DNA from: Candidatus Omnitrophica bacterium UBA6233
GTDB lineage: Bacteria > Omnitrophota > Gorgyraeia > Gygaellales > Profunditerraquicolaceae
Reading direction: 5' to 3'
Length of the DNA stretch: 59,407 nt
Assembly (NCBI GenBank): GCA_002440965.1
Contig: DJWJ01000038.1
Span: forward strand, 1-59,407
This document shows, piece by piece, positions 7,704 to 59,264 of this stretch; position 1 is the stretch's first letter; the number at the start of each line of letters is the position of its first letter. The position numbers were made by a program, and so were the translations under genes. The notes beneath the pieces are model-generated. The model was given only the letters and a program-made list of their open reading frames with translations, was not told the origin of the DNA and made no database searches.

Positions 7704-7761
7704 TTTAAATTCTCCTTTACGATTTATTATTTAGTTTTGAACTAACCTCTTAACTGAATAG

Positions 7762-10367: not shown

Positions 10368-10930
10368 CTATATAACCTTTTTTTATTTATAAAATTAAAC
10401 ACGGATTCGGGAACTACGTATCTAAATGACTTATTTTCTTTTATGCACTGACGTACCTGGAAACCCGAAACATCAACCGCCCTTATTTTCAAGGTTTCAA
10501 AATGCGGCGGAATATTCTCCAGAGGGTAACCCGGCCGGGTAGCTGTGACAAATTTAACTAATTTGCTTATTTCATCCAAATCCTTCCACTCATCCAGATA
10601 TTTAAGCAAATCCGAACCAATGATAAAATAAAATTGGTCGCAAGGAAATTTCTTTTTGAATACGCGTATTGTATCAATTGTATAAGAGCGGCCTTCTCTT
10701 TTTATCTCTATATCCGAAACCCCGAAATACTTATTACCCTTGACGGCTAATTTGAGCATTTTAAACCGGCTAGCCGCGTCAGCGATATCTTGATTACCTT
10801 TATGCGGTGGAAGATTCACCGGCACAAAAATAATCTTATCCAACCCGAGTTTCTCCCTTGCCTCTTCGGCCAGAATCAAATGGCCGATGTGAACGGGATT
10901 AAATGTGCCGCCTAAAATACCTATCTTCAT
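10364..10930 (-). CDS. nadD: Nicotinate-nucleotide adenylyltransferase
   Basis: GGTFNPVHIGH, SYTIDT, FIIGSD. Confidence 0.95.
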   Translation of the reverse strand: MKIGILGGTFNPVHIGHLILAEEAREKLGLDKIIFVPVNLPPHKGNQDIADAASRFKMLKLAVKGNKYFGVSDIEIKREGRSYTIDTIRVFKKKFPCDQFYFIIGSDLLKYLDEWKDLDEISKLVKFVTATRPGYPLENIPPHFETLKIRAVDVSGFQVRQCIKENKSFRYVVPESVFNFINKKRLYR

Positions 10931-10993
10931 AATTTAATCGGTTAACTCAAAAGTAAAAACGCAAAAAGTAAAATTGCAAGCCAAAGAAACTGT

Positions 10994-11127
10994 TAATGTC
11001 AAATACCAAATTCCAAAATTCAAAATAAACTTAAATGACAAATTACAAATGACAAAACCCTGGTTTTTATATTTGTAATTTTGATTTTGAATTTATTTTG
11101 TGCTTTGGATTTTGTCATTTGTCATTA
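10994..11127. repeat. Family-1 ~134-bp heptamer-based imperfect palindrome, copy A (proA/nadD)
   Basis: Runs TAATGTCAAAT...AAAACCCTGGTTTT...TTTGTCATTTGTCATTA; one end overlaps the proA stop; AAAAGTA-type heptamers flank it at ~10947-10990. Confidence 0.9.
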
Positions 11128-22001: not shown

Positions 22002-22009
22002 TTGTCATT
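21878..22009. repeat. Family-1 palindrome, copy B (coding; forms the amrB leader)
   Basis: AATGACAAATGTCAAA...TTTTGTCATTTGTCATT; abuts the amrS stop. Confidence 0.9.
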
Positions 22010-23112
22010 CACTTCCATATTCCTGCGATATTTTCCCCGCAGAACTTACATTTACCGTCTTTTAAATCATTCCGGACGATAAAATAACCGCGGCGCTCAA
22101 TGACAATTTTCCCGCAACGGGGGCAATACGTATTCTCCGCCGGATTAGCCGGGATATTACCGATATAAACATACTTTAAACCGCATTTAATGGCGATATT
22201 CCTGGCTTTCTCAAGGGACTCAACCGGAGTAGGATTAAGGCTGATCAACTTATACATAGGGAAAAACCTCGAAAAATGTAACGGCGTATCCGGCCCTAAA
22301 TTATCTTTAATCCACAAGCACATCTTCCTTAGAGATTCTTCGTCATCATTAAACCCCGGCAGAAGCAAGGTAGTTATCTCGATATGCACGCCTTCGCTTT
22401 TCAACACCTTCAGGGAATTCAAAACCGGCGCAAGCGCGCCTTCAGTCAACTTCGAATAATAATCATCGCTAAAACCTTTAAGGTCGATATTGGCGCCATC
22501 AAGATATTTTGCCAAAGCCCTAAGCGGAGCTTCGTTGATGTAGCCATTTGAATGCATAACATTCTTTAACCCCTGCTGACGGGCGGATTTTGCCGTCTCC
22601 AGCATATATTCATAAAAAATAGTCGGTTCGCTATAGGTATAGGCAATACTTGCGGATCCGGAATCCTTAGCCTCCCTTACTAACTCGGACGGCTCAAGAT
22701 AACGATATTCCACTTCTTCGGGACTACTCTGGGATATTGCCCAATTCTGGCAGAATTTGCATTTTAAGTTACATCCCGCAGTAGCTATAGAATAGGCATT
22801 GGTCGAGGGAAGGAAATGAAAGAACGGTTTTTTCTCTATCGGGTCAATATGTATAGCTACAGGCTTGGCGTAAACTAAACTATAAAGAGTCCCGCCGCGG
22901 TTCTGGCGCACTCCGCAATATCCCCGCGCTCCGTCCGGAATCATACATCGACGAGGACAAAGCTGGCATTGAACGGCATTTTTCTCCAGTTTTTGATAAA
23001 ACCGCGCTTCCTTTAATTGCTCTAAACTAAACAGATTAGGCAGGTAAATACAAGACAAGGCTAAAGAAAGAAGGATAACGACGCTAAAAATCAATCTGCC
23101 TGCATTCTTCAT
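22009..23112 (-). CDS. amrS: AmmeMemoRadiSam radical SAM enzyme with hydrophobic N-terminus
   Basis: CQLCPRRC, DPIEKKPFFHF, GCNLKCKFCQNW, YTYSEP, HFSRFFP, C-terminal CPRCG/CKFCG. Confidence 0.93.
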   Translation of the reverse strand: MKNAGRLIFSVVILLSLALSCIYLPNLFSLEQLKEARFYQKLEKNAVQCQLCPRRCMIPDGARGYCGVRQNRGGTLYSLVYAKPVAIHIDPIEKKPFFHFLPSTNAYSIATAGCNLKCKFCQNWAISQSSPEEVEYRYLEPSELVREAKDSGSASIAYTYSEPTIFYEYMLETAKSARQQGLKNVMHSNGYINEAPLRALAKYLDGANIDLKGFSDDYYSKLTEGALAPVLNSLKVLKSEGVHIEITTLLLPGFNDDEESLRKMCLWIKDNLGPDTPLHFSRFFPMYKLISLNPTPVESLEKARNIAIKCGLKYVYIGNIPANPAENTYCPRCGKIVIERRGYFIVRNDLKDGKCKFCGENIAGIWK

Positions 23113-23144: not shown

Positions 23145-23217
23145 TGGAGCTGAGGAGGATCGAACTCCTGGCCTCCTCGTTGCGAACGAGGCGCTCTCCC
23201 AACTGAGCTACAGCCCC
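23145..23217 (-). tRNA. tRNA-Ala(CGC), CCA not encoded
   Basis: GGGGCTGTAGCTCAGTTGGGAGAGCGCCTCGTTCGCAACGAGGAGGCCAGGAGTTCGATCCTCCTCAGCTCCA; G3:U70 pair; anticodon CGC. Confidence 0.96.
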
Positions 23218-34087: not shown

Positions 34088-36517
34088 TTACTTATCCAGC
34101 GCCTTAAGCTGATTAATCCGTTCTTCGGCGTATTTGGATTCAGGCAAATCCATATTAGATATTCTTGCGTAAGCCTTTATGGCTTCCTGATAATTACCTC
34201 TGTCTTCATAAGCTCTACCCAATCTGAAAAGAGCCGTAATAGTAACCCTATCGCTTGCATTCGACAACTTAGTTACCTCTACATACTCTTTCATGGCATC
34301 ATCAAAATTACCTCTGGCTTCTTCAATCTCGGCTATCTTAAGGTGCAACCCCGGCTGGTCTTTGGAGAGCGCTCCATTCAGGCTGTTGTGGTAACAATCC
34401 AAAGCGTTACTATAATCTCCGGTTTTAAAAAACAGCTCTGCCAAAGCAACGGATGCTTTTGACTTGATATCCGCTTTATTAGAACTAACGGCTTTTCTAA
34501 AACAATCCAGCGCTTCTTTATTTTTTGCCCCATCTATATAAGCAAGACCTAAAGCGTAATAGGCATCTGGCAATAAGCCGCTTTTGGGAAAATCCTGTAT
34601 AAGAGAAAGAAAATAGCGGGCTGCCAAATCAAATTCTTTATGCTGGTAATAGTAAATCCCTAACCACCATATGATATCGGGAGTAAAGCTGGAATCGGGG
34701 TATTTTGAACGCAGGGCTTTGAACTTCGCCAGCGCTTCTTCATTCTTACCCATTTGATACAAGGAATCCGCCTGCCCATATTCGGCTTTCTGAATCAACT
34801 CAATATCACCCGCTCCCAATCTGGAAACTTCTTTGAATGCCTGAGCAGCCGAAACATAATCTCTCAAATTATAGAAGCTGTTCCCTAAGAGATACAGAGC
34901 TTTAGGCCTTATTTCGCTACCGCTAAAATCATCCCGAAACCTTTTAAGAGCAATCTTGACCGAATTATAATCCTGCTTACTGAAATAAGCCAAACCGAGC
35001 GTATAAACAGCATCATCAAGAAAATTGGAAGAAGGGAATTCTTTTTCCAGCGTCTTGAGGCTTGAAATCGCCTCTTCAATCTTGGCGTCTTTCAAATAAA
35101 CCGAACCTAGCTGGCATAAAACATAATCGCTGCAGGAAGAATCCGGATATCTCTCCAAGAAAAGATTATATGTTTCTTGCGCCTTCCCATAGTTTCCTTC
35201 CTCCTGATACGCATCTCCTATCTGGCAAAGGGCGTTAATTTTAAACGCATCATCGCAACCCGAATCAACAACCTTCCTGAATTCTTCCACGGCTTCCATA
35301 GCTTTGCCTTCATTCAACAATGATTTACCCAAGCTATAATATAATTTATCCACAACCTGTCCTATGCTCTTATCTTTCGGGTTGATTCTAGCCAAAGCCT
35401 GGCGATAGGATTTTGAAGCCTCGGAATAATCCGCTAAACTGTACGCAGCATCAGCTTTGCCCATCAGCCCCTGGAGGATAATCAAAGGGTCTCCTGCCAA
35501 ACCCAACAATTCTTCATATGATCTCTTGGCCTGATTTATACGATTGGTTTCCATCAATAACATAGCTTTCCCCAACAAAAAGATTTCCCGGTTTCGCCTA
35601 TCCAGATTCTCCTGTTTTATCCCCGAAAAAATATCTTCGGCATCTCTATACCGTTTTAATTTAAGATACGCCCAACCTAAATCAAGCTTAGCCAAAGCAT
35701 TTAGTTTATCATCCGGATTACCGGACAAAACCTTGGAATATGCTTCTACCGAACCGATAAAATTCCCCAGATAATAGTTAGCCTCGCCTAAATAAAAATA
35801 AAGATAGGACACTTTAAGGGTATCTTTGGAAAACTCTTTGATCGCCAGGTCAATTTTATCGATTAAAGAAGAATACTCCTTCAAGTTATATAGACATTCT
35901 ATAATTTTAAGCGCGGCATCTTTACTTTGAGGCTCGCTGGGGTATTTCTTGTTCAGGACAGTAAAAAAATGCAACGCTTCCTTAAATCTCTGCTCTTGGA
36001 ACAAGCACCATCCCAAAGAATAATACGCGATTGGCGCATAAGAAGAAACGGGAAATTCTTTTATAATCTTGTCATAATAAGAAATTGCCTCGGGATAATC
36101 GTTTTTCTTAAAATTGACTTCGGCAATCCAGTAATAAAGGCTGTCTTTTACGGATTTGGCTGCGGGGTTCTCCAATAGTTCATTAAATTTGGCCAAGGCA
36201 AGGGCTAGTTTATCCTGATGAAAATAGCATTCGCCAATCAACAGATTCACTTCAATTCTCCGGGGAGAATCCGGATAATTCTTTAAAAAGCGCCCTAACA
36301 ACCCAAGGCTTACTTCATAATAACCATCCTCATAGGCTTTTTGGGCCATAAAAATAGTCTCTTCCTCTTTGGCTGATTCACCAGCGTAAGATAAATGACA
36401 AATACCAAAATTCAAAGCACAAAATAATGACAAAGCATAAAACACAAAAGACAAAACTTTAATTTTGATATTTGACATTTGGACTTTGGATTTATTTTGA
36501 ATTTTGAATTTTGTCAT
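34088..36517 (-). CDS. Multi-TPR protein with repeat-derived signal-like leader
   Basis: Numerous TPR units (AYYSLGWCLFQ, ALYLLGNSFYN, YP.S motifs); leader 35/47 identical to the amrB leader. Confidence 0.9.
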   Translation of the reverse strand: MTKFKIQNKSKVQMSNIKIKVLSFVFYALSLFCALNFGICHLSYAGESAKEEETIFMAQKAYEDGYYEVSLGLLGRFLKNYPDSPRRIEVNLLIGECYFHQDKLALALAKFNELLENPAAKSVKDSLYYWIAEVNFKKNDYPEAISYYDKIIKEFPVSSYAPIAYYSLGWCLFQEQRFKEALHFFTVLNKKYPSEPQSKDAALKIIECLYNLKEYSSLIDKIDLAIKEFSKDTLKVSYLYFYLGEANYYLGNFIGSVEAYSKVLSGNPDDKLNALAKLDLGWAYLKLKRYRDAEDIFSGIKQENLDRRNREIFLLGKAMLLMETNRINQAKRSYEELLGLAGDPLIILQGLMGKADAAYSLADYSEASKSYRQALARINPKDKSIGQVVDKLYYSLGKSLLNEGKAMEAVEEFRKVVDSGCDDAFKINALCQIGDAYQEEGNYGKAQETYNLFLERYPDSSCSDYVLCQLGSVYLKDAKIEEAISSLKTLEKEFPSSNFLDDAVYTLGLAYFSKQDYNSVKIALKRFRDDFSGSEIRPKALYLLGNSFYNLRDYVSAAQAFKEVSRLGAGDIELIQKAEYGQADSLYQMGKNEEALAKFKALRSKYPDSSFTPDIIWWLGIYYYQHKEFDLAARYFLSLIQDFPKSGLLPDAYYALGLAYIDGAKNKEALDCFRKAVSSNKADIKSKASVALAELFFKTGDYSNALDCYHNSLNGALSKDQPGLHLKIAEIEEARGNFDDAMKEYVEVTKLSNASDRVTITALFRLGRAYEDRGNYQEAIKAYARISNMDLPESKYAEERINQLKALDK

Positions 36518-36526
36518 TTGTCATTA
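36393..36526. repeat. Family-1 palindrome, copy C (coding; forms the TPR leader)
   Basis: AAATGACAAATACCAAAA...TTTTGTCATTTGTCATTA; 4 bp from the uvrA stop. Confidence 0.9.
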
Positions 36527-36530
36527 AATC

Positions 36531-39320
36531 TCATTGTTCTTCAAAATATTTTCTAAGATATTTTCCTGTATATGATCTTTGATTCTTAATGAGCTCTTCG
36601 GGGCTAGTTGAAGCAATCAGTTCTCCTCCCTTATCCCCGCCTTCCGGGCCCAAATCAATAATAAAATCTGCGCTTTTAACCACTTCTAAATTATGTTCAA
36701 TGACAATAACGGTATTGCCTTTATCGACCAGCCTCTGCAAAACATCAATCAGTTTGGCTATATCGGCAAAATGCAGGCCTGTAGTCGGCTCATCAAGGAT
36801 ATAGAGAGTATTGCCTGTCGCACGCTTGCTTAATTCACTGGAAAGCTTAATTCTCTGGGCCTCTCCTCCGGAAAGAGTTGTCGCGGATTGGCCCATCTGG
36901 ATATACCCTAAACCAACATCATATAAATAAGCAAGTGTATTATGTATTTTTGGAATGTTATTGAACACTTCCAGCGCTTCTTCTACGGTCATCTCCAATA
37001 CATCAGAAATAGATTTACCTTTATACTTTACAGCTAAGGTCGCCTCGTTAAACCTTAAGCCTTTGCATATATCGCATTTGACATACACATCCGGCAAGAA
37101 ATGCATTTCAATCTTTTTAATTCCATCACCCATACAGGCTTCGCAACGGCCTCCTTTAACATTAAAAGAAAATCTGCCCGGCCTATACCCGCGAACCTTG
37201 GCTTCAGGAAGCTGGCTGAAAATATCACGAATACAACCAAAGACTCCGGTGTAAGTAGTCGGATTTGATCGGGGCGTCCTTCCTATCGGAGACTGATCCA
37301 CAACAATCACCTTATCAATAAACTCTATTCCCGCGATTTTATTGAATAATCCGGGTTTTTCTTTGGACTTGTAAAGTTTCTGCGCCAAAGCCTTAAACAA
37401 TATATCGCCGATAAGAGTAGACTTGCCTGAACCGGACACTCCGGTAACTCCGATAAAGGTACCCAAAGGAAATTTTACATCAATATTCTTAAGGTTGTGT
37501 TCCCGGGCGCCTTTTATCTCCAAGAACTTCTTGTCCTTCCAGCTTCTTCTTATTTTAGGTAAATCTATTTTTAATTCCCTGCGCAAATATTTGGCAGTTA
37601 AAGAATGCCCATCTCCCAGAAGTTCTTCTTTTGTGCCGGAAAAAACCACTTCTCCTCCGGCTCTGCCGGCTCCGGGGCCTAAATCTACAATGTAATCCGC
37701 ATTAAGTATAGTTGATTCGTCATGCTCAACCACAAGTAAAGTATTCCCCAAATCCCTTAATGACTTAAGGGTATCCAACAGTTTATCGTTATCCCGCTGA
37801 TGCAGGCCGATACTTGGTTCATCTAACACATACAAAACTCCAACTAAGCCTGAACCAACCTGAGTAGCCAGGCGAATTCTCTGCGCTTCTCCTCCGGATA
37901 AAGTCGCGCTTTTTCTATCCAGGGTAAGATAATCCAAACCCACATCGATACAAAATTGCAATTTTTGGGTTATTTCTTTCAAAGCCTGATGCGCAATTAG
38001 CTTTTCTTTAGGGTTTAGCGCCAAATTACTGAAGAAATTATACGCTTCTTTGATGGACATTTGGGCAACTTCCCAGATATTCTTTTTGTTGATTCTGACT
38101 GCCAAACTCTCTTTTTTAAGCCGAGCCCCCTTACACGCAGGACAAGCTGAACTTAACATAAATCTGGATATCTCTTCCTTCAGATAATCGCTATCGGAAT
38201 CGCGGAAGAGCCTTTCCAGATGCGGAATAACTCCTTCATACGGCTTACTGCCGATAATCTCTTCCGAACCATAAAGAATCGCCCGCTGGTTTTCTTTGGA
38301 TAATTTATTAAACGGCGTATCCAAATCAAAACGCAATTCTCTAGCTAACTGGCGGATAAGCCAGCGGTAATAGAGAATATAACCTCTTCCGCCTCTTTTC
38401 CACGGACTAATAGCCCCTTCATTTATGGACTTACTCCGGTCAGGGATGACCAAATCCGGATCAAACTTAATCTTTGTCCCTAAACCATTGCATTCAAGAC
38501 AGGCGCCATACGGAGAGTTGAATGAGAAAATGCGCGGCTCAACTTCAGCGTAATTTATTCCGCATTTGGAACAGGCGTATTGTTCGCTAAAAACCATATC
38601 CTCTTTAGCGCTTATTATTACAATTCCTTTACCAACCTTCAGCGCTGTTTCAACCGAATCAGTCAGCCGGTTTTTGACGCCTGCCTTAATAGTGAGCCGG
38701 TCAACCACAACTTCTATATTATGCGTTTTGTACTTAGCTAACTTTAAATCTGGGGGTAACTCATAAACCTTTCCATCAACGCGCGCCCTTACAAATCCTG
38801 ATTTTTGGATCCCGCTAAACACATCTTTATACTCGCCCTTTCTCCCCCTAACAAGCGGAGCGAGTATAAGGATATCTGTCTGCGCAGGTAAAGATAGAAT
38901 TTTTTCAATAATTTCCTGCGAACTTTGCCTTTCTATTGGAGAGCCGCACTGATAACAAAATATCTTTCCAATCCTGGCAAAAAGCAATCTCAAGTAATCG
39001 TAAATTTCCGTCTGGGTCGCTACCGTCGAACGGGGGTTACTGCCGGCAGACCTCTGCTCAATGGCTATTGTAGGAGACAAACCGGAGATATACTCTATAT
39101 CCGGCTTCTGGAGCTGTTCCAAAAACTGACGGGCATAACTGGAAAGGCTTTCAACGAACCTGCGCTGGCCTTCGGCGTAAACAGTATCGAAGGCAAGGCT
39201 GGATTTCCCCGAGCCGGATAAACCAGTAACTACTATAAGCTTATTACGGGGCAACTTTAGGCTTATGTTCTTAAGATTGTGCTCTTTGGCTCCGCGAATA
39301 TCGATAAATTCACTCTGCAT
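36531..39320 (-). CDS. uvrA: Excinuclease ABC subunit A
   Basis: Two Walker A motifs ([18 protein letters not shown]), LSGGEAQR twice, zinc-finger Cys motifs. Confidence 0.98.
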
Positions 39321-41343: not shown

Positions 41344-41583
41344 TTATTTCTTTTTCTTCTTGCCGCCTCTTTTCATCTTGGCGCAGGAAACATCACCCTG
41401 CTTATCCAAGAAATAAAGGTAGCCTTCTTTTCTCTTGATACCGCATTTAGCTACTTTTTTGGGACTGCCTCCTTTTTTAGAGCCTCTAGCCATCTTGGCG
41501 CAGGAAACATCACCCTGCTTGTCAATGTAATAGAGGAATCCCTTCTGCCTCTTTACTCCCAACTTCGCTATTTTTTCTGCCAT
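41344..41583 (-). CDS. Small, very basic two-repeat protein, putative nucleic-acid-binding
   Basis: RBS GGGGGTG before the ATG at 41583; two units K.AK.G.KR..G.LY..DKQGDVSCAKM.RG; Lys-rich tail. Confidence 0.85.
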   Translation of the reverse strand: MAEKIAKLGVKRQKGFLYYIDKQGDVSCAKMARGSKKGGSPKKVAKCGIKRKEGYLYFLDKQGDVSCAKMKRGGKKKKK

Positions 41584-41660
41584 TTTCGTATTCACCCCCT
41601 CTCGTTTAAGAATTTTTGAACTATGCGCGTGAACCGCAACTTAAAACTGGTTATTTAGTT

Positions 41661-41794
41661 TAATGACAAATGACAAAGCACAAAATTCAAAATAAATTTA
41701 AATGACAAAATCCAAATGACAAAACCTTGGTTTTGACATTTGTAATTTTGATTTTGAATTTATTTTGTGCTTTGAATTTTTTCATTTGTCATTA
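41661..41794. repeat. Family-1 palindrome, copy D
   Basis: TAATGACAAATGAC...AAAACCTTGGTTTT...TCATTTGTCATTA; AAAAGTA-type heptamers flank it at ~41795-41825. Confidence 0.92.
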
Positions 41795-41843
41795 CACTTT
41801 TTACTTTTAACCTTACTTTTTGGCCATCACTCAATACTCTTTT

Positions 41844-45400: not shown

Positions 45401-45798
45401 ATTATTTCCGTTAACGGCTTAACTACAAAATCCCTGGCAAACATTCGTGGATGCGGGACAATGAGATTCTTTTTGCTGATTACTTTATCGCCATAAAGTA
45501 AAATATCCAAATCTATCACCCGGGGGCCGTTACGCACGGATTTTACCCGCCCCATTTCTTTTTCGATTATTTTAAGCTTCTTTAGGAGTTTTAAGGGCGA
45601 AAGGATGGTGCTGATTTTAAGGCTGGCGTTTAAGAATTTCGGCTGGTTTCGCGGGCCTCCGACGGGATCGGTTTCAACAATAGATGATTGCTTTAAAACT
45701 TTTGTATCTTTCAAGAGATTAATCTTTCTTATGGCTTGCCCGATGTTTTTTTTCCTGTTCCCCAAGTTCGAACCTAAACTTAAATAACAAATTACCAT
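45397..45798 (-). CDS. folK: 2-amino-4-hydroxy-6-hydroxymethyldihydropteridine diphosphokinase
   Basis: YLSLGSNLG, GPRVIDLDILLY, PHPRM. Confidence 0.96.
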   Translation of the reverse strand: MVICYLSLGSNLGNRKKNIGQAIRKINLLKDTKVLKQSSIVETDPVGGPRNQPKFLNASLKISTILSPLKLLKKLKIIEKEMGRVKSVRNGPRVIDLDILLYGDKVISKKNLIVPHPRMFARDFVVKPLTEII

Positions 45799-46961
45799 AA
45801 ATTATCTATATTTTTTAACCTATCCAGAGCTTCTCTTATACGGTCCTTATCAACAGTAAGCGCCATACGGATATAACCTTCTCCGTATTTTCCAAAACCG
45901 ACTCCGGGAGTTACGACAATATTAGCTTTCTCTAAAAGCTCCCCGGAGAACTTTATTGAATCCCTGCCTTGAGGAACTTTTATCCAGACATAAAATGTCG
46001 CTTTCGGATTAAGCGCCAACCATCCCAAAGAATTCAAACCCCTTATAAGCACGTCGCGCCTTTCCTGATAAAAAGAACACATGCGCTCGACATGTTCCTG
46101 GGGGCCATTGAGAGCCGCGGCACCGGCCAATTGCACAGCCGAAAAAATCCCCGAATCGACATTGGATTTTACTTTGGCCAAAGCCGATATTAATTTTTTA
46201 TTCCCACAGGCCCAACCCACCCGCCAACCAGTCATGTTATAAGTCTTCGATAAAGAATGAAACTCCACTACCACATCACCGGCTCCTTTAAATTCCAATA
46301 AACTCTTGGGCTTATATCCGTCGTAGCATATTTCCGAATAAGCAAGGTCCGAGATAATTATAATTTTGTTTTTATGAGCGAAACCGATCAGCTCTTTATA
46401 AAAAGAATCCTGCGCTATAGCGGATGTAGGATTATTAGGGTAATTGACAAAAATTATCTTTGCTTTTTTGCGCGCGGACAAAGGTATTGATTTTAAATCC
46501 GGAAGAAAAGCGTTTTTCTCCAGAAGCGGCATGATATAAGGCTTACCGCCGGCCAAGATTGTCCCGCCTTTATAAGGAGGATAACACGGGTCGGGAACCA
46601 AAGAATAATCTCCCGGATTTAAAAAAGCCAGCGGAAAATGCGCGATCCCCTCTTTTGAACCAATTAACGGAAGGATTTCGGAATCAGGATCAAGCTTAAC
46701 TCTGAATTTGCGCTTATACCAACCTTCAATCGCGCGGCGTAAAATCGGCATACCTTGATCCAAGGCGTAACGGTGGTTAGCCGGCTCAAGCGCTGCGCGA
46801 TGCAACGCTTCGATTATATGCTTAGGAGTAGGCTGATCCGGATCCCCTATCCCAAGATCAATAATATCACGGCCTTGGGCGCGAGCCTTTCTCTTGGCTT
46901 TATCAATTTCTAAAAATAAGTACGGAGGCAATTCCTGCAACTTTTTAGATAGCTTAAACAT
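45792..46961 (-). CDS. dapL: LL-diaminopimelate aminotransferase
   Basis: LGIGDPD, GSKEG, NYPNNPT, HSLSKTYNMTGWRVG; located in the dap operon. Confidence 0.85.
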   Translation of the reverse strand: MFKLSKKLQELPPYLFLEIDKAKRKARAQGRDIIDLGIGDPDQPTPKHIIEALHRAALEPANHRYALDQGMPILRRAIEGWYKRKFRVKLDPDSEILPLIGSKEGIAHFPLAFLNPGDYSLVPDPCYPPYKGGTILAGGKPYIMPLLEKNAFLPDLKSIPLSARKKAKIIFVNYPNNPTSAIAQDSFYKELIGFAHKNKIIIISDLAYSEICYDGYKPKSLLEFKGAGDVVVEFHSLSKTYNMTGWRVGWACGNKKLISALAKVKSNVDSGIFSAVQLAGAAALNGPQEHVERMCSFYQERRDVLIRGLNSLGWLALNPKATFYVWIKVPQGRDSIKFSGELLEKANIVVTPGVGFGKYGEGYIRMALTVDKDRIREALDRLKNIDNLW

Positions 46962-46977
46962 AGATTCCCCTATTATT

Positions 46978-47106
46978 TAATATCCAATCACCAAATCAGA
47001 ATGTCGAATGAAATCCCCTGCTTGTCGGCAAACAGGCAATTACTCAATATCCCAATTGTAACTTGGGATTTGATTAATTCATTCGTCATTGGGGCTTGTA
47101 TATTGA
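46978..47106. repeat. Family-2 (CCAAT/ATTGG) heptamer element carrying a nested 20-bp palindrome
   Basis: Homologous, inverted, to 54622-54733; extra CCTGCTTGTCGGCAAACAGG at 47017-47036. Confidence 0.85.
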
Positions 47107-47817
47107 TCATTTTAAAACGTCTTGCATAGAATATAACCCCGCGGGCTTGCCAAAAATCCATTTTGCCGCTCTTAACGCGCCCAAAACGAATAAATCCCGC
47201 GAATGCGCCTGATGCTTTATCTCGATGCGCTCGGAATTCCCGCAGAATACTATCGTATGGTCTCCGACAATATCGCCGAGACGGATTGCATGAGCCGGGA
47301 TTTGCCTGCCGGTAGCTTCACTCAAAATTTCCATCATTTTCTTAGCTGTCCCGGAAGGCGCGTCTTTCTTGGTTTTGTGGTGCGCTTCAACTATTTCAAT
47401 GCTATAATCCGGCCCTAATTTTTTAGCTATCTGCGGCAATATCTCAAATAAAACATTCACTCCGATAGCCATATTCGGGCTAAATACAACCGGAACAACC
47501 CGGGATATCTCTTCGATTTTCCTTATTTGAGGATCGCTTAAACCGGTGGTTCCCAAAACAAGGGCCTTTCTATACTTTGCGACATAATCCAAGGTGGCCT
47601 CGGCTGCTTCGGGAACAGTAAAATCAACGAATACATCCGTAAGAAAGAGCCCGTCGATGCTTGAGGAAATCTTGAGTTTACCAATATCTTTTCCGATTGC
47701 CGGAGTCCCTTTCTTTTCCAAAGCCAAGGTCAATTCAAAATCTTTATCCGAAGAAGCTAACTCGAAAATCCGCCGACCCATTTTCCCGCAAACACCGGCT
47801 ATGCCTAATTTAATCAT
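47107..47817 (-). CDS. dapB: 4-hydroxy-tetrahydrodipicolinate reductase
   Basis: GVCGKMG, LGTTG, EAHHKTKKDAPSGTA, RLGDIVGDH. Confidence 0.96.
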   Translation of the reverse strand: MIKLGIAGVCGKMGRRIFELASSDKDFELTLALEKKGTPAIGKDIGKLKISSSIDGLFLTDVFVDFTVPEAAEATLDYVAKYRKALVLGTTGLSDPQIRKIEEISRVVPVVFSPNMAIGVNVLFEILPQIAKKLGPDYSIEIVEAHHKTKKDAPSGTAKKMMEILSEATGRQIPAHAIRLGDIVGDHTIVFCGNSERIEIKHQAHSRDLFVLGALRAAKWIFGKPAGLYSMQDVLK

Positions 47818-47880
47818 CTAACACCTCTCTTATAATGAATGACCCTAGAACTGCTACGTCAACTAAAAAATCAAAAACTT

Positions 47881-47996
47881 TAATGCCAAATACCAAAGCG
47901 CAAAATTCAAAATAAATCTAAATGACAAATATTAAATAACAAAACATTAGTTTCGGTATTTGGTATTTGAGCTTTGGATTTTGTCATTTGTCATTA
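47881..47996. repeat. Family-1 palindrome, copy F (116 bp, one arm shortened)
   Basis: TAATGCCAAATACCAAAG...TTTTGTCATTTGTCATTA; AAAAGTA heptamers at 47997-48023. Confidence 0.88.
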
Positions 47997-48022
47997 AAGT
48001 TTTTACTTTTAACTTTTTACTT

Positions 48023-48898
48023 TTATAATAACCCATAATCTCTTAGCGCTTTTCTTAATTTTTCCAGATTTTCAGGCAACATTTCGCACATCGGCAGCCT
48101 TAAATCCGGTTCACACATCCCTAATAACCCCAGCGCTGTCTTTACCGGGATAGGATTAGTTTCAATGAATAAAGCTTTGACTAACGGCAATAATTTATAA
48201 TGCAGCTCCCTGGAGCGCCCGATATCGCCTTTTTCAAAAGCGCCGACTAAATCTGCGACATCCCGGGGGACGATATTGGCAGCTACAGAAATTATCCCTG
48301 TCCCGCCAATACTTAAAACCGGAAGAGTCAAACTGTCATCCCCGGAAATTAATTCGAAATTATCCGGACAAAGCGCTTTTATGCGCGACATCTGATCCAG
48401 GTTTCCCGACGCCTCTTTCACCGCAATAATATTTTTGCAATCATTAGCCAACTTTGCCATTGTTTCCGGCTCAATATTTACTCCGGTCCGTCCGGCAATA
48501 TTATAAAGCACAATCGGTATCTTCACCGATTGGGCGACAGCCTTAAAATGCTCATACAGCCCTCTTTGCGTCGGACGGTTATAATACGGGGATATCTGCA
48601 GAGACGCATTCACACCCGCCTTTACTGCCTGCTTAGTCAAAGCTATTGCCTCTTCGGTCGAATTTGACCCGGTCCCTGCAATTACCGGAACCCTCCCCGC
48701 TACTTGCCCGATAGTTACTTCAATTACTCTTTCGTGTTCTTCAAAAGACAAGGTAGCGGATTCTCCGGTCGAACCGCAAGGAACAATCCCGCTAGATCCA
48801 TTTTTAATCTGAAATTCAATTAACTCCCCAAGCTTCTTTTCGTCAATCCTTCCATTTCTAAAGGGCGTAACAACAGCTACAATAGAGCCTCTAAACAT
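48023..48898 (-). CDS. dapA: 4-hydroxy-tetrahydrodipicolinate synthase
   Basis: GSTGESATL, PYYNRP, LYNIAGRT, VKEASG, ETNPIPVK. Confidence 0.97.
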   Translation of the reverse strand: MFRGSIVAVVTPFRNGRIDEKKLGELIEFQIKNGSSGIVPCGSTGESATLSFEEHERVIEVTIGQVAGRVPVIAGTGSNSTEEAIALTKQAVKAGVNASLQISPYYNRPTQRGLYEHFKAVAQSVKIPIVLYNIAGRTGVNIEPETMAKLANDCKNIIAVKEASGNLDQMSRIKALCPDNFELISGDDSLTLPVLSIGGTGIISVAANIVPRDVADLVGAFEKGDIGRSRELHYKLLPLVKALFIETNPIPVKTALGLLGMCEPDLRLPMCEMLPENLEKLRKALRDYGLL

Positions 48899-53703: not shown

Positions 53704-54621
53704 TTATCTCCCCAATAATTTTATTAAAACCGCTTTCTGCACATGCATCCTGTTTTCGGCTTCATCAAATACAACCGAATTTCTACTCTCGATTACTTCA
53801 TCGGTTATCTCCTGGCCCCTATGCGCGGGAAGACAGTGCATAATCAAAACACCTCTCTTGGCTAATTTTATCAAATTCATATTTACCTGAAAATCTTCGA
53901 ATACCTCTATTCTTTTCTTGGCTTCATCTTCCTGCCCCATACTTGTCCAGACATCGGTATAAATCACATCCGCATTCTTAACCGCGCTAAATGGGTCATT
54001 AAACACGTTAATCGCGGCTCTCATTGTCTCTGCAACGGCCCTTGAATCTCTTAGAACCGAGGCATCCGGTTCATAACCTTTCGGGCTACCCACATTCATA
54101 TTCACGCCTAATTTTGCGCAAACGAAAAGCAGAGAATTACAAACATTATTGCCATCTCCCACATAGGCCAAAGTAATACCTTTGAGGAATTTTAATTTTT
54201 CCTTTACCGTGTATAAATCAGCCAACGCCTGACACGGATGCGAAAAGTCCGTGAGGCCGTTAATTACCGGTATAGCGGCAAATTTGGCCAACTCTTCGCA
54301 ATTCTTATGCTCAAATGTCCTTAAAACTATTCCGTCGACAAACCTAGAGAGAGTTCTGGCAACATCCGCGATAGATTCCCTAACCCCCAGGCTTATCTCA
54401 CCCGGAGATAGATACAAAGAGCTACCTCCCAATTGAAACATCCCCACCTCAAAAGACACCCTAGTCCTGTTCGAAGGCTTTTGAAAAACAAGCGCGAGGG
54501 TTTTACCGGCTAAAGCCTTATTAAACTTAGCTTTATTTTTCTTTAGTTTATCGGTAAGGCTGAATAATTCTTCGATTTCTTTAGTCGTCAAATCTTTTAT
54601 GGTAAGCAGGTCTTTATTCAT
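53704..54621 (-). CDS. argF: Ornithine carbamoyltransferase (start set at MNKDLL; the longer ORF start lies in a repeat)
   Basis: PSNRTRVSF, HPCQ, GDGNNV, MHCLP, AENR. Confidence 0.96.
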   Translation of the reverse strand: MNKDLLTIKDLTTKEIEELFSLTDKLKKNKAKFNKALAGKTLALVFQKPSNRTRVSFEVGMFQLGGSSLYLSPGEISLGVRESIADVARTLSRFVDGIVLRTFEHKNCEELAKFAAIPVINGLTDFSHPCQALADLYTVKEKLKFLKGITLAYVGDGNNVCNSLLFVCAKLGVNMNVGSPKGYEPDASVLRDSRAVAETMRAAINVFNDPFSAVKNADVIYTDVWTSMGQEDEAKKRIEVFEDFQVNMNLIKLAKRGVLIMHCLPAHRGQEITDEVIESRNSVVFDEAENRMHVQKAVLIKLLGR

Positions 54622-54733
54622 GACAATTCCCAATCTCCAAGTCCCAATGACGAATGAATTTCCAAATCCCAACTTCCAATTGAGGCATTGAGTAATTGGG
54701 ATTTCATTCGACATTGAATCATTGGATATTGAC
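54622..54733. repeat. Family-2 heptamer element (argD/argF junction)
   Basis: CCCAATCTCCAAGTCCCAATGACGAATG...ATTGGGATTTCATTCGACATTG...ATTGGATATTG. Confidence 0.85.
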
Positions 54734-55951
54734 TCCCTTTAAGACTTCATTCAATATAGCTATCGCCTTATCTACTTCTTTTTTCGAAACATTCAACGCC
54801 GGCATAAGCCTCAAAACCTTTGTGTGCGTGCAATTAATCAAAAGCCCTCTCTCGATGCATTTTTCAACAATGGCCTTGCCCTCAATATTCAATTCTACGC
54901 CAACCATTAAACCCAACCCTCTCACTTCTTTTATCACAGAATATTTTCCTTTTAGACCATTCAACTTCGCAACTAAATATTCTCCCATCAAGTTAGCATT
55001 TTTAAGCATTCCTTCTTCTTGTATAGCCTTAAAGACAGCCAGGGCTGCACGGGCTATAACCGGCCCTCCGCCAAAAGTCGAAGCGTGCATTCCCGGACCC
55101 AAAGTATCGGCAATCTCTTTCTTAACCACCATTGCGCCGATAGGCAAACCTCCTCCTAAGGCCTTGGCTAAAGTCATTATATCCGGGGTTACACCGTAAT
55201 GCTGATAAGCGAATAACTTTCCGGTCCGGCCAATTCCGGTTTGGACTTCATCTACAATAAGCAATAACTTCTTTTCGTCGCATAATTTCTTAAGCGCCAA
55301 AACAAAATCTTTACTGGCGACATTTACTCCGCCTTCCCCCTGCACAAGCTCAAGCATTATGGCAACTGTTTTATCATTGACGGCATTTTCGACCGCGGCA
55401 ATATCGTTAAACTTAACGGCCTTAAAACCTTCCGGTATGGGGCTAAAACCCTCCTGATATTTTTTTTGCCCGGTTGCAGCAAGTGCCGCTAATGTCCTTC
55501 CGTGAAATGAATTTTCAAAAGTTATGATTTCGTATCTGCCTTGCCCGATGGTTCGACTAAGCTCACCATCGGCGCTGATTTTAGTCGAAGCGCCGAATTT
55601 TCTAGCCAGCTTAAACGCCCCCTCATTGGCCTCTGCCCCGGAATTACAAAAGAACACCTTGGCAGGATACGACCAATAAACTATCTCCTTGGCTAACTTT
55701 GCCTGCGGAATATGATAATAGTTATTCGGAACAAAAATAAGCTTGGAGACCTGATCCCGCACCGCCTGCATTACCTTGGGATGGCAATGGCCAAGGCTAC
55801 CTACACCCCAGCCCGGAAAGAAATCCAAATATACCTTATTATGGATATCCCAAAGTTTAGAGCCCTTTCCCTTAACGAACACCAGAGGAACTTTAGTGTA
55901 AGTAGGCATTATGTAATCTTTGTAGGCTTGAAAAATATCTTCTAGCTTCAT
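54719..55951 (-). CDS. argD: Acetylornithine aminotransferase with palindromic insertion
   Basis: NSGAEANE, SFHGRT, DEVQTGIGRTG, TLAKALGGG. Confidence 0.96.
   Translation of the reverse strand: MKLEDIFQAYKDYIMPTYTKVPLVFVKGKGSKLWDIHNKVYLDFFPGWGVGSLGHCHPKVMQAVRDQVSKLIFVPNNYYHIPQAKLAKEIVYWSYPAKVFFCNSGAEANEGAFKLARKFGASTKISADGELSRTIGQGRYEIITFENSFHGRTLAALAATGQKKYQEGFSPIPEGFKAVKFNDIAAVENAVNDKTVAIMLELVQGEGGVNVASKDFVLALKKLCDEKKLLLIVDEVQTGIGRTGKLFAYQHYGVTPDIMTLAKALGGGLPIGAMVVKKEIADTLGPGMHASTFGGGPVIARAALAVFKAIQEEGMLKNANLMGEYLVAKLNGLKGKYSVIKEVRGLGLMVGVELNIEGKAIVEKCIERGLLINCTHTKVLRLMPALNVSKKEVDKAIAILNEVLKGVNIQ
55547..55591. repeat. 45-bp TTCGAC/GTCGAA-type palindromic insertion in argD
   Basis: TTCGACTAA (55552-55560) and TTAGTCGAA (55581-55589); encodes ASTKISADGELSRTI. 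Confidence 0.85.
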
Positions 55952-55997
55952 TTTATTTTGGCTAAATTAAGGTAAATATAGGTTAAAACAAAACTGT

Positions 55998-56131
55998 TAA
56001 TGTCAAAGGTCAAAGCCCAAAACTCAAAATAAGCACAAATTACAAATACCCAATATCAAAACCTTGGTTTTGATATTTAACATTTGGATTTTGAATTTAT
56101 TTTGGGCTTTGAATTTTGTCATTTGTCATTA
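55998..56131. repeat. Family-1 palindrome, copy G (argB/argD)
   Basis: TAATGTCAAAGG...AAAACCTTGGTTTT...TTTGTCATTTGTCATTA; shares the AAACTGT flank with copy A. Confidence 0.92.
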
Positions 56132-56143
56132 TTAAATTATCTT

Positions 56144-56998
56144 TCATCGAACAATCTCAGTCCCAATTCCCTTATCCGTAAATATTTCGAGCAGCAGCCC
56201 ATGCGGGATACGCGCATCAATTATATGTGTCTTTTTAACGCCTTTTTCCAAAGCATCGATACAAGCCTGGACTTTAGGAATCATGCCCTGCTGGATAACT
56301 TTCTCTTCAATCAACCCTTTAGCTTCTTGGGTAGTCAAGGTTGAGATAAACGAATGCGGATCGTCAGGGTTACGCAAAATTCCCTTGACGTTAGTCAACA
56401 AAACAAACTTTTCGGCTCCCAGAGAACCGGCGGCGCTGGCAGCTGCTTCATCGGCGTTGACATTATAAGTTTTTTTATCTTTGGAGCTGCCCATGGGAAG
56501 AATGACCGCGATCCTGTCTTTTTTTAATTCTTCCAGGATAATTTCAGAGTTAACCCCGGTAATGTCTCCGACTAACCCCAAATCTACCTTTGCTTTTTTC
56601 TTTTCGGCTTGGATAAGCTGGCCGGCTTTTCCGTTTAGCCCCACGGCCTTTGCACCCAGCTCCGAGATTTCCTTAATGATAATATCATTTAAAGCCTGCA
56701 GTTCCTCTTCTACTACAGCCAAGGTTTCTTCATCAGTTACCCTCATCCCGTCCACAAATTCGGTCTTTTTACCGGAATGCCGCATCCGGTCGCTTATATT
56801 CGGGCCGCCCCCATGGACCAATACGGGTTTTAAGCCCATAAAATTCAGGAAAACAATATCCTCTAAAACTCCTTTACGGATCTTCTCTTCCCCTAAAATG
56901 CTTCCTCCGTATTTTATGACGATTACTTTCTTGTGGAATTTCTTTATATACGGCAGGGCTTCAATTAATACATCCGCCTTTCTGATTGCTTCATCCAT
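56144..56998 (-). CDS. argB: Acetylglutamate kinase
   Basis: IKYGGS, VHGGGP, GMRVTD, NVNAD, GMIPKV. Confidence 0.97.
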   Translation of the reverse strand: MDEAIRKADVLIEALPYIKKFHKKVIVIKYGGSILGEEKIRKGVLEDIVFLNFMGLKPVLVHGGGPNISDRMRHSGKKTEFVDGMRVTDEETLAVVEEELQALNDIIIKEISELGAKAVGLNGKAGQLIQAEKKKAKVDLGLVGDITGVNSEIILEELKKDRIAVILPMGSSKDKKTYNVNADEAAASAAGSLGAEKFVLLTNVKGILRNPDDPHSFISTLTTQEAKGLIEEKVIQQGMIPKVQACIDALEKGVKKTHIIDARIPHGLLLEIFTDKGIGTEIVR

Positions 56999-57010: not shown

Positions 57011-58147
57011 TTAATTATATTCCGCGTTAATTTTAATATATTCGGGCGTAAGGTCCGAAGTATAAACTGTAGCGCTTGCTTTACCCTGATTCAACGCAAC
57101 TTCAACATCTATGTCCTTCTTCTTTAGAGAACTGACTTTGACTTTCAAATCTTCTTCCTTAACCTTTATTCCGCCAGATCCTGCGGCGGCAGCGATCCTG
57201 CCGAAATTGGGATTCTGGCCGTAGACAGCTGTTTTAAAAAGACTGGAGTTGGCTATATTCAATGCCACTGTTTTAGCTTCTGCGTAATTTCTGGCGGAAG
57301 CGACTTTTATCTTGATAAATTTGCTTGCGCCTTCTGCGTCTTTAACGATCATTTTGGCTAATTCCAGACAAACAATAGTTAAGCCCTGGATAAATAAATC
57401 CAGATTTTTGCCCTTGCTTATCAAAGCGCTCTTGCTAGCTCCGTTTGCCAAAAGCATAACCGAATCATTCGTGCTCATACAACCATCAACGGTTATACAG
57501 TTAAAAGAATCTTTTACCGCCGCTTTCAACGCCTGATTAAGCGCTTGCCTTGATACGTTGGCATCCGTAAAAATAAAACTTAAAAGTGTTGCCATATTCG
57601 GCGCGATCATTCCGGCGCCCTTAGCCACCCCGCATATGATTATGGATTTTGAGTCTATATTTAACCTAACTGAAACTTCTTTAACAAAAGTATCAGTAGT
57701 CAGAATCGCCTTTTCAGCTTCATGGGCGCCCCCAGAGGACAATTTTTTAACTAACTCGGGAATACCGGATTTAATCTTATCAATTTGCAGCCTCTTGCCG
57801 ATTATCCCGGTTGAAGCAACCAAAATATTCTCTTTCCTTAACCCAAGCGCCACGGCTAAAGCTTGCGAAGTTTCTCGCGCGTCTTTTAACCCTTGCTTGG
57901 CGGTAAAACAATTCGCGTTTGCGCTATTGGCGATAATCGCCTGAAAAGAATCGCTAATCCTCAAATAATCTTTACTTAAAACAACCGGCGCAGCCAGTAT
58001 GCTATTAGTTGTAAATACGCAAGCGGCTTTCGCGGGGATTTCAGAGAAAAATAAAGCTAAGTCGGGTTTACCGGATTTCTTGATCCCGCAAGATATCCCG
58101 CTTGCCTTAAAACCCAGAGGTAGAATCGCTTTTTTAAGTATCTTCAT
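57011..58147 (-). CDS. argJ: Bifunctional ornithine acetyltransferase/N-acetylglutamate synthase
   Basis: GIKKSGKPDL, ILTTDT, KGAGMIAPNMATLL, DGCMSTNDS, DAEGASK. Confidence 0.96.
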   Translation of the reverse strand: MKILKKAILPLGFKASGISCGIKKSGKPDLALFFSEIPAKAACVFTTNSILAAPVVLSKDYLRISDSFQAIIANSANANCFTAKQGLKDARETSQALAVALGLRKENILVASTGIIGKRLQIDKIKSGIPELVKKLSSGGAHEAEKAILTTDTFVKEVSVRLNIDSKSIIICGVAKGAGMIAPNMATLLSFIFTDANVSRQALNQALKAAVKDSFNCITVDGCMSTNDSVMLLANGASKSALISKGKNLDLFIQGLTIVCLELAKMIVKDAEGASKFIKIKVASARNYAEAKTVALNIANSSLFKTAVYGQNPNFGRIAAAAGSGGIKVKEEDLKVKVSSLKKKDIDVEVALNQGKASATVYTSDLTPEYIKINAEYN

Positions 58148-58149
58148 TT

Positions 58150-58232
58150 TAATACCAAAGGTCAAAGCTCAAAATTCAAAATAAATCTAAATGACAAATA
58201 CCCAATGACAAAACCTTGGTTTTGGATTTTGA
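58150..58232. repeat. Family-1 palindrome, copy H (one arm truncated)
   Basis: TAATACCAAAGGTCAAAG...AAAACCTTGGTTTTGGATTTTGACATTTG. Confidence 0.85.
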
Positions 58233-58241
58233 CATTTGAGT

Positions 58242-59264
58242 TTATAATAACCCCATTGTCTCCGGGAATCCATACATTATATTCATATTCTGCACTGCCT
58301 GGCCAGAAGCCCCTTTTATCAGATTATCGATAGCACAAATTATAATCACGCTGTCAGGATTATTCATTATTCCAATGTCACAAAAATTAGTGCCCACCGC
58401 ATCTTTTAATCCCGGGAATTCCCCTTGCGCTTTTATCCTTACGAAAGGTTCGTTTTTATAAAATTTCTTATATAAATCAACCGGTTTTTGAATTTTGAAT
58501 TTTGAATTTTGAATTTTCTGCACATATATCGTCTCTAATATTCCTGCTCTTACCGGTAATAGATGCGGCACAAAAATTACATTAATCTTTTTACCCGCCA
58601 GCTTCGATAGCGCCTGATTGATTTCCGGGGTATGCTGGTGCACTCCAACCTTATAGGCCTTGAAATCCTCTTTGTCTCGCGAAGAAAAGAATTCTTCGGT
58701 TTTCTTTCTCCCGGCACCGCTTACGCCTGATTTGGCATCAATAATTATCGAGTTAAAATCCACCGGCCCCAAAGCCACCAGCGGGGCTAACGCCAGTATT
58801 GCTGCCGTCGGATAACATCCCGGATTAGCGACAATCTTCGCTTTTTTTATTTCGGCCCTGCATAATTCAGGGAGTCCGTAAACGGAAGCTTTTAAATTCG
58901 GTTTATCTTTATGCTTATATTGATAAAATTCTTCATAGACCTTAGAATCCTTGAGCCTATAATCGGCGCTCAGGTCAATTACCCTTTTACCCGCCTTAAT
59001 CAATTGCGGGACCAAGTCCATCGAAGAAGTGTGCGGCAAAGCCAGAAATACAGCATCGCATTTATCGACGATGTTCTTTATATCCGCTTTCGAACAAACT
59101 AATTCGAGTTTGCCGGAAAACTTGGGGAATATCTTAGAAATCGGCTTACCGAAAGCGCTGCCTGAAAAAAGCCCGGAAATTTTAACTTGCGGGTGATTAA
59201 GCAGGAGCCGAATCAATTCTTCTCCTGTATACCCAGTCACCCCCACGATTCCGACATTTATCAT
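58242..59264 (-). CDS. argC: N-acetyl-gamma-glutamyl-phosphate reductase
   Basis: GVTGYTG, DLSADYRL, ANPGCYPT, SGVSGAG, IDNLIKGASGQA. Confidence 0.97.
   Translation of the reverse strand: MINVGIVGVTGYTGEELIRLLLNHPQVKISGLFSGSAFGKPISKIFPKFSGKLELVCSKADIKNIVDKCDAVFLALPHTSSMDLVPQLIKAGKRVIDLSADYRLKDSKVYEEFYQYKHKDKPNLKASVYGLPELCRAEIKKAKIVANPGCYPTAAILALAPLVALGPVDFNSIIIDAKSGVSGAGRKKTEEFFSSRDKEDFKAYKVGVHQHTPEINQALSKLAGKKINVIFVPHLLPVRAGILETIYVQKIQNSKFKIQKPVDLYKKFYKNEPFVRIKAQGEFPGLKDAVGTNFCDIGIMNNPDSVIIICAIDNLIKGASGQAVQNMNIMYGFPETMGLL
58486..58517. repeat. (TTTTGAA)x4 tandem repeat within argC
   Basis: Four units plus a partial unit; encodes KIQNSKFKIQK. Confidence 0.95.

Follow-up and report, generated by a model that had tools for sequence, protein, structure and literature searches.

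Can a hairpin of only 20 nt be a mobile unit in its own right? This question is raised by a stretch of 59,407 nucleotides of Candidatus Omnitrophica bacterium UBA6233 (GCA_002440965.1, contig DJWJ01000038.1, positions 1-59,407 of the forward strand), the whole of which is referred to as the window. An earlier note on this DNA had described a precise 20-bp palindrome that is inserted in one copy of a palindromic repeat, the family-2 element, and is missing from another copy, and had inferred that the hairpin itself is mobile. Our analysis supported this inference through the polarity of the insertion and the wide recurrence of the unit; no transposition mechanism or enzyme was shown. Insertion polarity, 20-nt boundaries, lack of a target duplication, recurrence in unrelated flanks, an invariant loop and strand asymmetry were all observed. 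We favour, with moderate confidence, the explanation that the 20-mer is a discrete and conserved hairpin insertion unit, which spreads as a REP-like non-autonomous element and whose mobilising enzyme is unknown.

The hairpin and its host element

The 20-nt unit is located at positions 47017-47036, in the 145-nt spacer (46962-47106, minus strand) between dapB, which lies upstream (47107-47817, minus strand; 4-hydroxy-tetrahydrodipicolinate reductase; TIGR00036, 231 bits), and dapL, which lies downstream (45792-46961, minus strand; LL-diaminopimelate aminotransferase; NF006756, 603 bits). On the plus strand it reads CCTGCTTGTCGGCAAACAGG, a sequence present as a single copy in the 59-kb window, where no second match was found at up to three mismatches and shuffled sequences gave an expectation of 0. 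Its host is the filled family-2 element at 47000-47098 (plus strand), and positions 47000-47048 have the layout AATGTCGAATGAAATCC-CCTGCTTGTCGGCAAACAGG-CAATTACTCAAT. The 17-mer on the left, AATGTCGAATGAAATCC, recurs exactly once, on the minus strand at 54699-54715, and there runs straight into CAATTACTCAAT. This recurrence belongs to a second family-2 copy (54638-54715, minus strand), which lies in the opposite orientation between argD, upstream of it (54719-55951, minus strand; acetylornithine aminotransferase), and argF, downstream of it (53704-54621, minus strand, with 54621 as the likely start; ornithine carbamoyltransferase). The argD-argF copy lacks exactly these 20 bases, and its empty site falls between 54699 and 54698. 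The presence of a filled and an empty site within one window, as the earlier note had described, is therefore real, the flanks of the 20-mer being contiguous in the second copy. No target duplication surrounds the 20-mer, and the insertion register at this site is ambiguous by one base (C on the plus strand).

The word "precise", on the other hand, did not hold, since the palindrome is imperfect. On the plus strand, positions 5/16 (C.A) and 9/12 (T.G) mispair, whereas the minus strand, CCUGUUUGCCGACAAGCAGG, forms an uninterrupted 8-bp stem with one U.G pair and a CCGA loop. The fold energy is -9.1 kcal/mol for the minus strand (z -4.4) versus -4.8 kcal/mol for the plus strand. The minus strand is also the sense strand of all genes neighbouring the 20-mer, and it bears nearly all genes in this part of the window. 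The fully pairing strand is designated the sense form of the unit, which at this locus is the mRNA-sense strand and reads CCTGTTTGCCGACAAGCAGG. With an A at position 15, it is a one-base variant of CCTGTTTGCCGACAGGCAGG, the commonest form in the metagenome scan described below.

The family-2 element itself is about 90-100 nt long, carries inverted termini AATGWCGAATGAA and folds as a long imperfect hairpin. The filled copy has AATGTCGAATGAA as its terminus at 47000-47012 and AATGACGAATGAA, on the opposite strand, at 47078-47090. In the predicted mRNA-sense fold, the 20-mer stands as a separate arm at an internal helix junction of the element, and the predicted fold energy is -35.3 kcal/mol for the filled element versus -21.4 kcal/mol for the empty orthologue.

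Direction of the change

Sequences matching the window have been seen in metagenomes from hydrocarbon sites, oil facilities, groundwater, landfill and wastewater, and the DapB homologues carry the names Candidatus Omnitrophota or Omnitrophica. The metatranscriptome look-up returned one run with one contig, which lies in dapL. The filled spacer is identical in all six contigs returned for the exact DapL of the window (from JGI, NCBI and Logan); as these come from several studies, the 20-mer is not an artefact. Template switching can create short palindromic insertions, so a local de novo quasi-palindrome was considered together with an assembly or library artefact. Neither half of the hairpin is templated nearby, the identical spacer recurs in independent assemblies and studies from 2013 to 2022, and the recurrence of the unit elsewhere with an invariant loop contradicts both explanations; we regard them as barely credible.

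In a sister lineage represented by three separate assemblies (L127, L128 and L129, from ENA, JGI and NCBI GCA_028717055.1), DapB is 94% identical to that of the window at the protein level and 92% at the nucleotide level. The dapB-dapL spacer of this lineage is 125-126 nt long and holds the same family-2 element minus exactly 20 nt, with ...GAGTAATTG joined directly to GGATTT..., and no hairpin is present. The two lineages are 94% identical over the 140 nt that span the junction. In more distant relatives (DapB 82-92% identical), the family-2 element is absent from the dapB-dapL spacer, which measures 8-9 nt in L130 and L334 and 52 nt in L332, and consists of an unrelated 99 nt in L131. Because the sister lineage has the empty element and the distant relatives have no element, the order of events is a compact ancestral spacer, then the arrival of family-2, and then the arrival of the hairpin in the lineage of the window.

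Two side observations concern the same spacer. At dapB-dapL, some relatives have the family-2 element and others lack it, and in L332 the spacer (10712-10763) contains the palindrome GGGGACTGTCCCC twice, which adds one more small hairpin repeat at this position. A closer relative, L126 (DapB 99% identical; dapB 98.5%), was examined as a recent empty site for the whole family-2 element and was not used, because identity collapses at the end of dapB and the contig ends shortly afterwards. At 3480-3546 of this contig, the haplotype switches in the last bases of dapB, the spacer element is missing and only 47 nt more follow before the contig ends. The contig probably represents a recombinant or a chimera of the assembly.

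The paralogous family-2 copies were assessed from the depth of public contigs aligned to the spacer at a likeness of at least 88%, with runs X9 and X11 coming from landfill and groundwater samples. In run X11, the family-2 arms reached 500-735x, the single-copy flanks 29-38x and the 20-mer 36-40x; in run X9, the corresponding depths were 190-247x, 18-27x and 18-22x. The arms were thus 10-20 times deeper than the flanks, and the 20-mer stayed at single-copy depth. Contigs that leave the alignment at 47017 or 47037 read the empty form (...AAATCCC^AATGATTAAATGCCC and ...GAATGAAATCC^CAATT, where ^ marks the junction). At this likeness, there are roughly 10-20 family-2 copies per genome equivalent, and only the dapB-dapL copy is filled.

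These results bear on the opposite polarity, in which family-2 originally included the 20 bases and both the other copy and the sister lineage lost them by precise deletion. A comparison of the two copies within the window cannot give the direction, and the earlier note had itself conceded that its inference would fail if most family-2 copies contained the 20-mer. This did not prove to be the case: the depth of the arms, the empty loose ends and the empty orthologue all point the other way, and the depth together with the loose ends rules out deletion in the other copies. Were the 20-mer ancestral, exactly the same 20 nt would have to have been lost from the orthologue as well as from essentially all of the 10-20 paralogues; many genomes also have the 20-mer where no family-2 sequence surrounds it. 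We consider this polarity very improbable.

When the likeness was lowered to 80%, about half of the depth over position 47022 in runs X11, X14 and X17 carried a C, by which the sequence becomes the commonest form CCTGCCTGTCGGCAAACAGG. The contigs concerned probably stem from related strains with the same insertion, which is not proven. They could also be other filled copies, and so lend some weight to the possibility that the hairpin reached this locus by gene conversion or recombination from another filled family-2 element or a mosaic repeat. The 10-20 family-2 copies per genome equivalent would offer ample homology for such an exchange, and at other loci (L156, L168 and L244) AT-rich palindromes of a similar kind often lie next to the hairpin. 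At a likeness of at least 88%, however, the 20-mer is single-copy and no second filled family-2 context was found, and the insertions of the L168/L294 and L280/L315 comparisons described below lie in sequence other than family-2. Gene conversion, moreover, would merely move an original insertion to another copy. At the window locus, conversion from a filled family-2 copy cannot be excluded, and we judge it unlikely.

Recurrence of the unit in unrelated contexts

The proposal of mobility would also have been refuted, according to the earlier note, if the 20-mer had no other occurrences. Other occurrences were found in abundance. A metagenome scan with the pattern CCTGCYTGTCGGCAARCAGG matched at least 119 stretches. 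Among the matches listed, about half were a T-variant within the coding sequence of GC-rich contigs, which was taken as chance; the remaining ones were CCTGCCTGTCGGCAA[A/G]CAGG, found in contigs whose GC content is 28-47% and bordered by AT-rich, mostly intergenic sequences unrelated to one another. A scan of IMG/VR, in which all 16 Y/R variants were allowed, returned almost only CCTGTCTGCCGACAGGCAGG, with widely differing surroundings and, in some contigs, in several copies. After removal of near-duplicates, metagenome contigs and viral loci together gave at least 77 distinct low-GC contexts of the unit, and the IMG/VR viral contigs gave 26 distinct contexts. The recurring copies differ from the window copy at one or two bases. 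Clusters were also seen, with seven copies in 8.7 kb of L244 and five in 19 kb of a prophage contig. Among the matches listed, 63 of the 77 distinct copies lie outside ORFs of at least 100 aa, versus the 28% that would be expected with 72% of the DNA coding (p = 3e-22).

The constraint on the sequence extends beyond the stem. With the stem fixed as CCTGT[CT]TG....CAGGCAGG in IMG/VR, the CCGA loop occurred in 26 distinct contexts versus 31 for the other 255 loops together, which indicates that the whole 20-mer is specific and not the stem alone. The CCGA loop is invariant among the recurring copies. Variation is confined to TT, TC or CT at positions 5-6 and GG, AG or GA at positions 15-16, by which pairing on the sense strand is kept through U.G pairs; the mirror-image variants, which were permitted in the IMG/VR scan, were not found there. 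The flanks of the unit are not conserved except for a C at position +1 (49%) and a shortage of T at position -1. The two flanks are complementary to each other at 30-36% versus 25% by chance, and in several cases the unit forms the centre of an older palindrome.

Since full pairing occurs only on the mRNA-sense strand, the loop does not vary and U.G pairs preserve the stem in the variants, the 20-mer might above all act as a signal at the RNA or DNA level, for example as a stem that stabilises mRNA or terminates transcription or as a site for protein binding; selection would then maintain it, and its spread would be secondary. In line with this, a gene in the same orientation tends to precede the unit: relative to the sense form, the nearest upstream gene is co-oriented in 24 cases and opposed in 12. 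Of the seven copies in L244, five are in the sense orientation and followed by a T-run, and in the prophage contig L279 three of the four copies are in the sense orientation. The orientation bias is weak, however (p = 0.065), the window copy has no U-tract, and the sister lineage manages without the hairpin at the same site. Selection for a signal also leaves the arrival of identical 20-mers at unrelated sites unexplained. Covariance models of Rfam 15 at the gathering score detected only tRNAs in the window and in 20 hairpin-bearing loci, and thus no RNA family that matches the unit. We therefore doubt that function comes first and return to the insertion unit as the preferred explanation.

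REP families number tens to hundreds of copies per genome. For the unit, the copy density in the lineage of the window is low, at one per 59 kb in the window and none in the syntenic 20-kb stretches of relatives, against the clusters in L244 and the prophage contig; these figures come from contigs and not from whole genomes scanned for the canonical form. In a scan of genome contigs with CCTGYTTGYCGRCAARCAGG, more than 119 single matches were obtained from unrelated taxa and were read as background. As this pattern required an A at position 15, the scan missed the canonical forms; the string by which genomes should be searched for the unit is CCTGYYTGCCGACARRCAGG. No exact copy of the 20-mer is present in 50,697 cultured phage records (INPHARED) or 72,556 plasmids (PLSDB), where the partial matches were chance-like and mostly in coding sequence. 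A literature search for the sequence of the 20-mer and for its 14-mers found nothing.

Carriers of the unit were identified by exact protein look-up or from homologue names. The contig L146 belongs to a Candidatus Omnitrophica MAG (through DnaK, PIS33979.1) and L172 to Parcubacteria group bacterium GW2011 (through LeuRS), and L279 and L255 belong to a MAG labelled Firmicutes/Bacillota, all by exact look-up; L218 and L168 were assigned to Bacteroidota from the homologue names of their Y1 transposases. L279, the prophage contig, has genes for a terminase, a tail sheath and a head-tail connector. The carrier phyla are MAG labels, for which binning errors are possible, yet the labels are mutually independent.

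Several further repeats were observed on these contigs. Directly adjoining the hairpin of L172, a second stem-loop, CCCCGCACC...GGTGCGGGG, was noted (765-806); in groundwater and soil runs, this stretch had a depth of 80-820x versus 0-16x around it and 0-4x directly beside it, which marks it as a separate high-copy repeat. AT-rich palindromes much like families 1 and 2 (gaatgtcgaatgtcgaaat... and ttgacttttgaattttaacttttgaatt) lie on the Bacteroidota contigs L168 (2775-2840) and L294 (about 7680-7720), and because of them the hairpin may not be the sole repeat type common to several phyla. In a TARA contig (L177, 1-450), each of four tandem units of about 110-125 nt bears the hairpin in reversed sense, lengthened to GTCCCTG...CAGGGAC, with a terminator-like stem and a T-run after it; there was no Rfam match, and the array looks like small RNA genes or a tandem composite repeat.

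Further filled and empty sites

The earlier note had recommended a search for similar motifs and for filled/empty pairs in order to define a target rule. One additional probable pair and one imprecise pair were obtained, and no fixed target emerged beyond the C at +1 (49%). The probable pair is from Bacteroidota, in which L168 (filled) and L294 (empty) encode Y1 proteins that are 93% identical and have homologous upstream regions. The two contigs share CCGGTATC^CAC...ATCACTAACGCG; L294 reads GCCGGTATC^CACTTCCATCACTAACGCG, and L168 reads CCCGGTATC[CCTGTTTGCCGACAGGCAGG]CACATCTATCACTAACGCG. Homology extends for about 170 nt on the right flank and for only 8-9 nt on the left, beyond which other rearrangements occur. 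Owing to this short left match, the alignment makes L168/L294 no more than a probable filled/empty pair. It nevertheless gives the same 20-nt boundaries as the pair in the window, and no other register fits both pairs. The unit is inserted at TTG^GGA in the window and at ATC^CAC in L168.

In the third comparison, of L280/L267 with L315 (78% identical), the unit sits in the loop of an older stem-loop; because this loop has diverged, the pair is imprecise. Contigs aligned to the Parcubacteria hairpin locus included no empty allele (the 20-mer is too short to align alone), and gap-pattern scans of IMG/VR for empty alleles of the phage copies returned only filled contigs.

Search for a mobilising enzyme

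Among 132 ORFs next to copies of the unit, two genes for Y1 (HUH) transposases were found, on L218 and L168. The Y1 gene of L218 encodes a RAYT (NCBIfam NF047646, 97.6 bits). This RAYT was rejected as the cognate enzyme: a different REP of its own, GGCGCTCGTTTGTAACGAGTGCC, flanks it and its homologues and also follows the L218 gene, and none of 13 homologue loci has the hairpin. The IS200-like Y1 gene of L168 was likewise rejected, with the hairpin at none of seven homologue loci. In the 20 contigs that encode homologues of the two Y1 genes, no hairpin was found within 6-10 kb. No cognate enzyme was thus found among the neighbouring ORFs, and one located elsewhere in these genomes is not excluded.

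As a separate observation, RAYT genes of Bacteroidota lie between inverted copies of GGCGCTCGTTTGTAACGAGTGCC in L284-L293, in L281-L283 and at 740-800 of L218. An identical 188-aa RAYT occurs in several genomic contexts, and L281-L283 contain tandem duplicate RAYT genes. This looks like an active REP-RAYT system (REPtron) that is unrelated to the hairpin.

Comparison with known systems

REP families are lineage-specific, at the level of a species or genus, and include very short forms such as the 22-25 nt elements of Stenotrophomonas (SMAG). The unit described here, in contrast, was found in Omnitrophota, Parcubacteria, Bacteroidota, Bacillota and phage-labelled contigs. It resembles REPs in being an imperfect palindrome (20 nt, with an 8-bp stem including one or more U.G pairs and a 4-nt loop) that is extragenic, occurs in both orientations, is sometimes clustered and has strand-specific mismatches in its stem. 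REPs are extragenic sequences of 20-40 nt, often within operons or at the 3' ends of genes, and are thought to move without duplication through a single-strand hairpin; a GTAG or CGTC tetranucleotide tag defines their super-families (PMC3733652). The unit begins with CCTG and ends with CAGG, and it differs in having neither tag at either end, no conserved flanking tetranucleotide and no RAYT found to be cognate and flanked by it.

The ends of IS200/IS605 elements are imperfect subterminal hairpins that are recognised on one strand only, and no target site is duplicated. In these elements and their gene-less derivatives (PATEs), the two ends differ from each other and insertion takes place 3' of a fixed tetra- or pentanucleotide. 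The unit is likewise free of a target duplication, but a single hairpin makes up the whole of it, and no target motif of 4-5 nt was detected beyond the C at +1. MITEs are 50-500 bp long and have terminal inverted repeats and target-site duplications. The window offers a comparable case of a non-autonomous repeat nested in a repeat, in which the host family-2 element is MITE-like and present or absent among relatives; the unit differs from MITEs in its 20 bp and its lack of a duplication.

Small GC-rich hairpins that invade AT-rich spacers and other repeats are also represented by the GC clusters of yeast mitochondria and the repetitive hairpin-forming elements of sponges, for which, in the parts of these reports available to us, filled/empty polymorphism is described and no enzyme is given as known (PMC4478555, PMC2800124). 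As far as these partial sources go, such hairpins occur in organelles, mostly measure 30-50 bp or more and have unrelated sequences, and they serve as an analogy only.

An intrinsic terminator is suggested by the GC-rich 8-bp stem with its tetraloop and by the T-run that follows it in L244. However, the window copy lies between co-transcribed genes and is followed by GGAUUUCAUUCG, which is not a U-tract, and no consistent T-run follows the unit across all copies; it was seen only in some other genomes. The inner CUGCC-loop-GGCAG of the unit may also resemble the repeat hairpin of type I-F CRISPR. A full-length CRISPR repeat has 28-37 nt and the conserved unit 20 nt with unconserved flanks, and the A at position 15 of the window copy breaks that 5-bp fold.

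A stronger version of the preferred explanation, in which the 20-mer is an undescribed and exceptionally small mobile unit that crosses phyla, is possibly carried by phages, inserts precisely with no target duplication and is moved by neither REP/RAYT nor IS200/IS605 machinery, remains tentative, and we regard it as possible rather than probable.

Proposed mechanism and implications

On its fully pairing strand, the unit has the consensus CCTG-YY-TG-CCGA-CA-RR-CAGG. In the preferred explanation, it entered a resident family-2 element in dapB-dapL after the split from the closest sampled sister lineage. A putative trans-acting enzyme would recognise the one-strand hairpin, most plausibly as single-stranded DNA; this step is inferred from the anatomy of the unit, by analogy with HUH/Y1 enzymes. 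Insertion would show little target specificity, with an inferred preference for a C just 3' and for the loops or junctions of existing palindromes. The one-strand hairpin, the absence of a duplication, the little choice of target and the frequent location in palindrome loops and junctions are the reasons for which a single-strand process in trans, HUH-like or otherwise hairpin-specific, is envisaged. Once in place, the hairpin would become part of the dapB-dapL transcript, in which it would form an additional stable stem-loop; this stem-loop may be neutral, or it may lend stability to the mRNA.

Should the unit indeed be mobile, it would stand at the lower size limit of mobile DNA and would offer a rare example of a short palindromic repeat whose clean filled and empty sites fix the boundaries to the base, and these exact boundaries would therefore make it a tractable substrate for asking how REP-like hairpins spread. 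That the boundaries can be fixed to the base was unexpected, as was the finding of the unit in several phyla and phage contigs. The occurrence of the unit in Omnitrophota, Parcubacteria, Bacteroidota, a Bacillota prophage and other phage contigs suggests that it spreads horizontally among uncultured bacteria, which are often ultra-small, and their viruses. The 20-mer, family-1 and family-2 are markers of strain variation in these lineages, and they also cause breaks in metagenome assemblies.

Family-1 is a palindromic, AT-rich intergenic element of 105-175 nt, with at least seven copies in the window (10979-11151, 21862-22034, 36378-36550, 41646-41818, 47874-48030, 55983-56155 and 58143-58248). 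It is made up of octamers like TTTTGAAT and TTTGTCAT, and its AATGACAAATGAC termini resemble those of family-2. Since it is missing from the syntenic 20-kb stretches of relatives (DapB 86-89% identical), family-1 represents a lineage-specific expansion. The only Rfam match of the window is a single tRNA gene on the minus strand (23145-23217). A repeat scan of the window also revealed internal direct repeats of 92-95 nt with 76-77% identity at 6496-7075 and 41365-41576.
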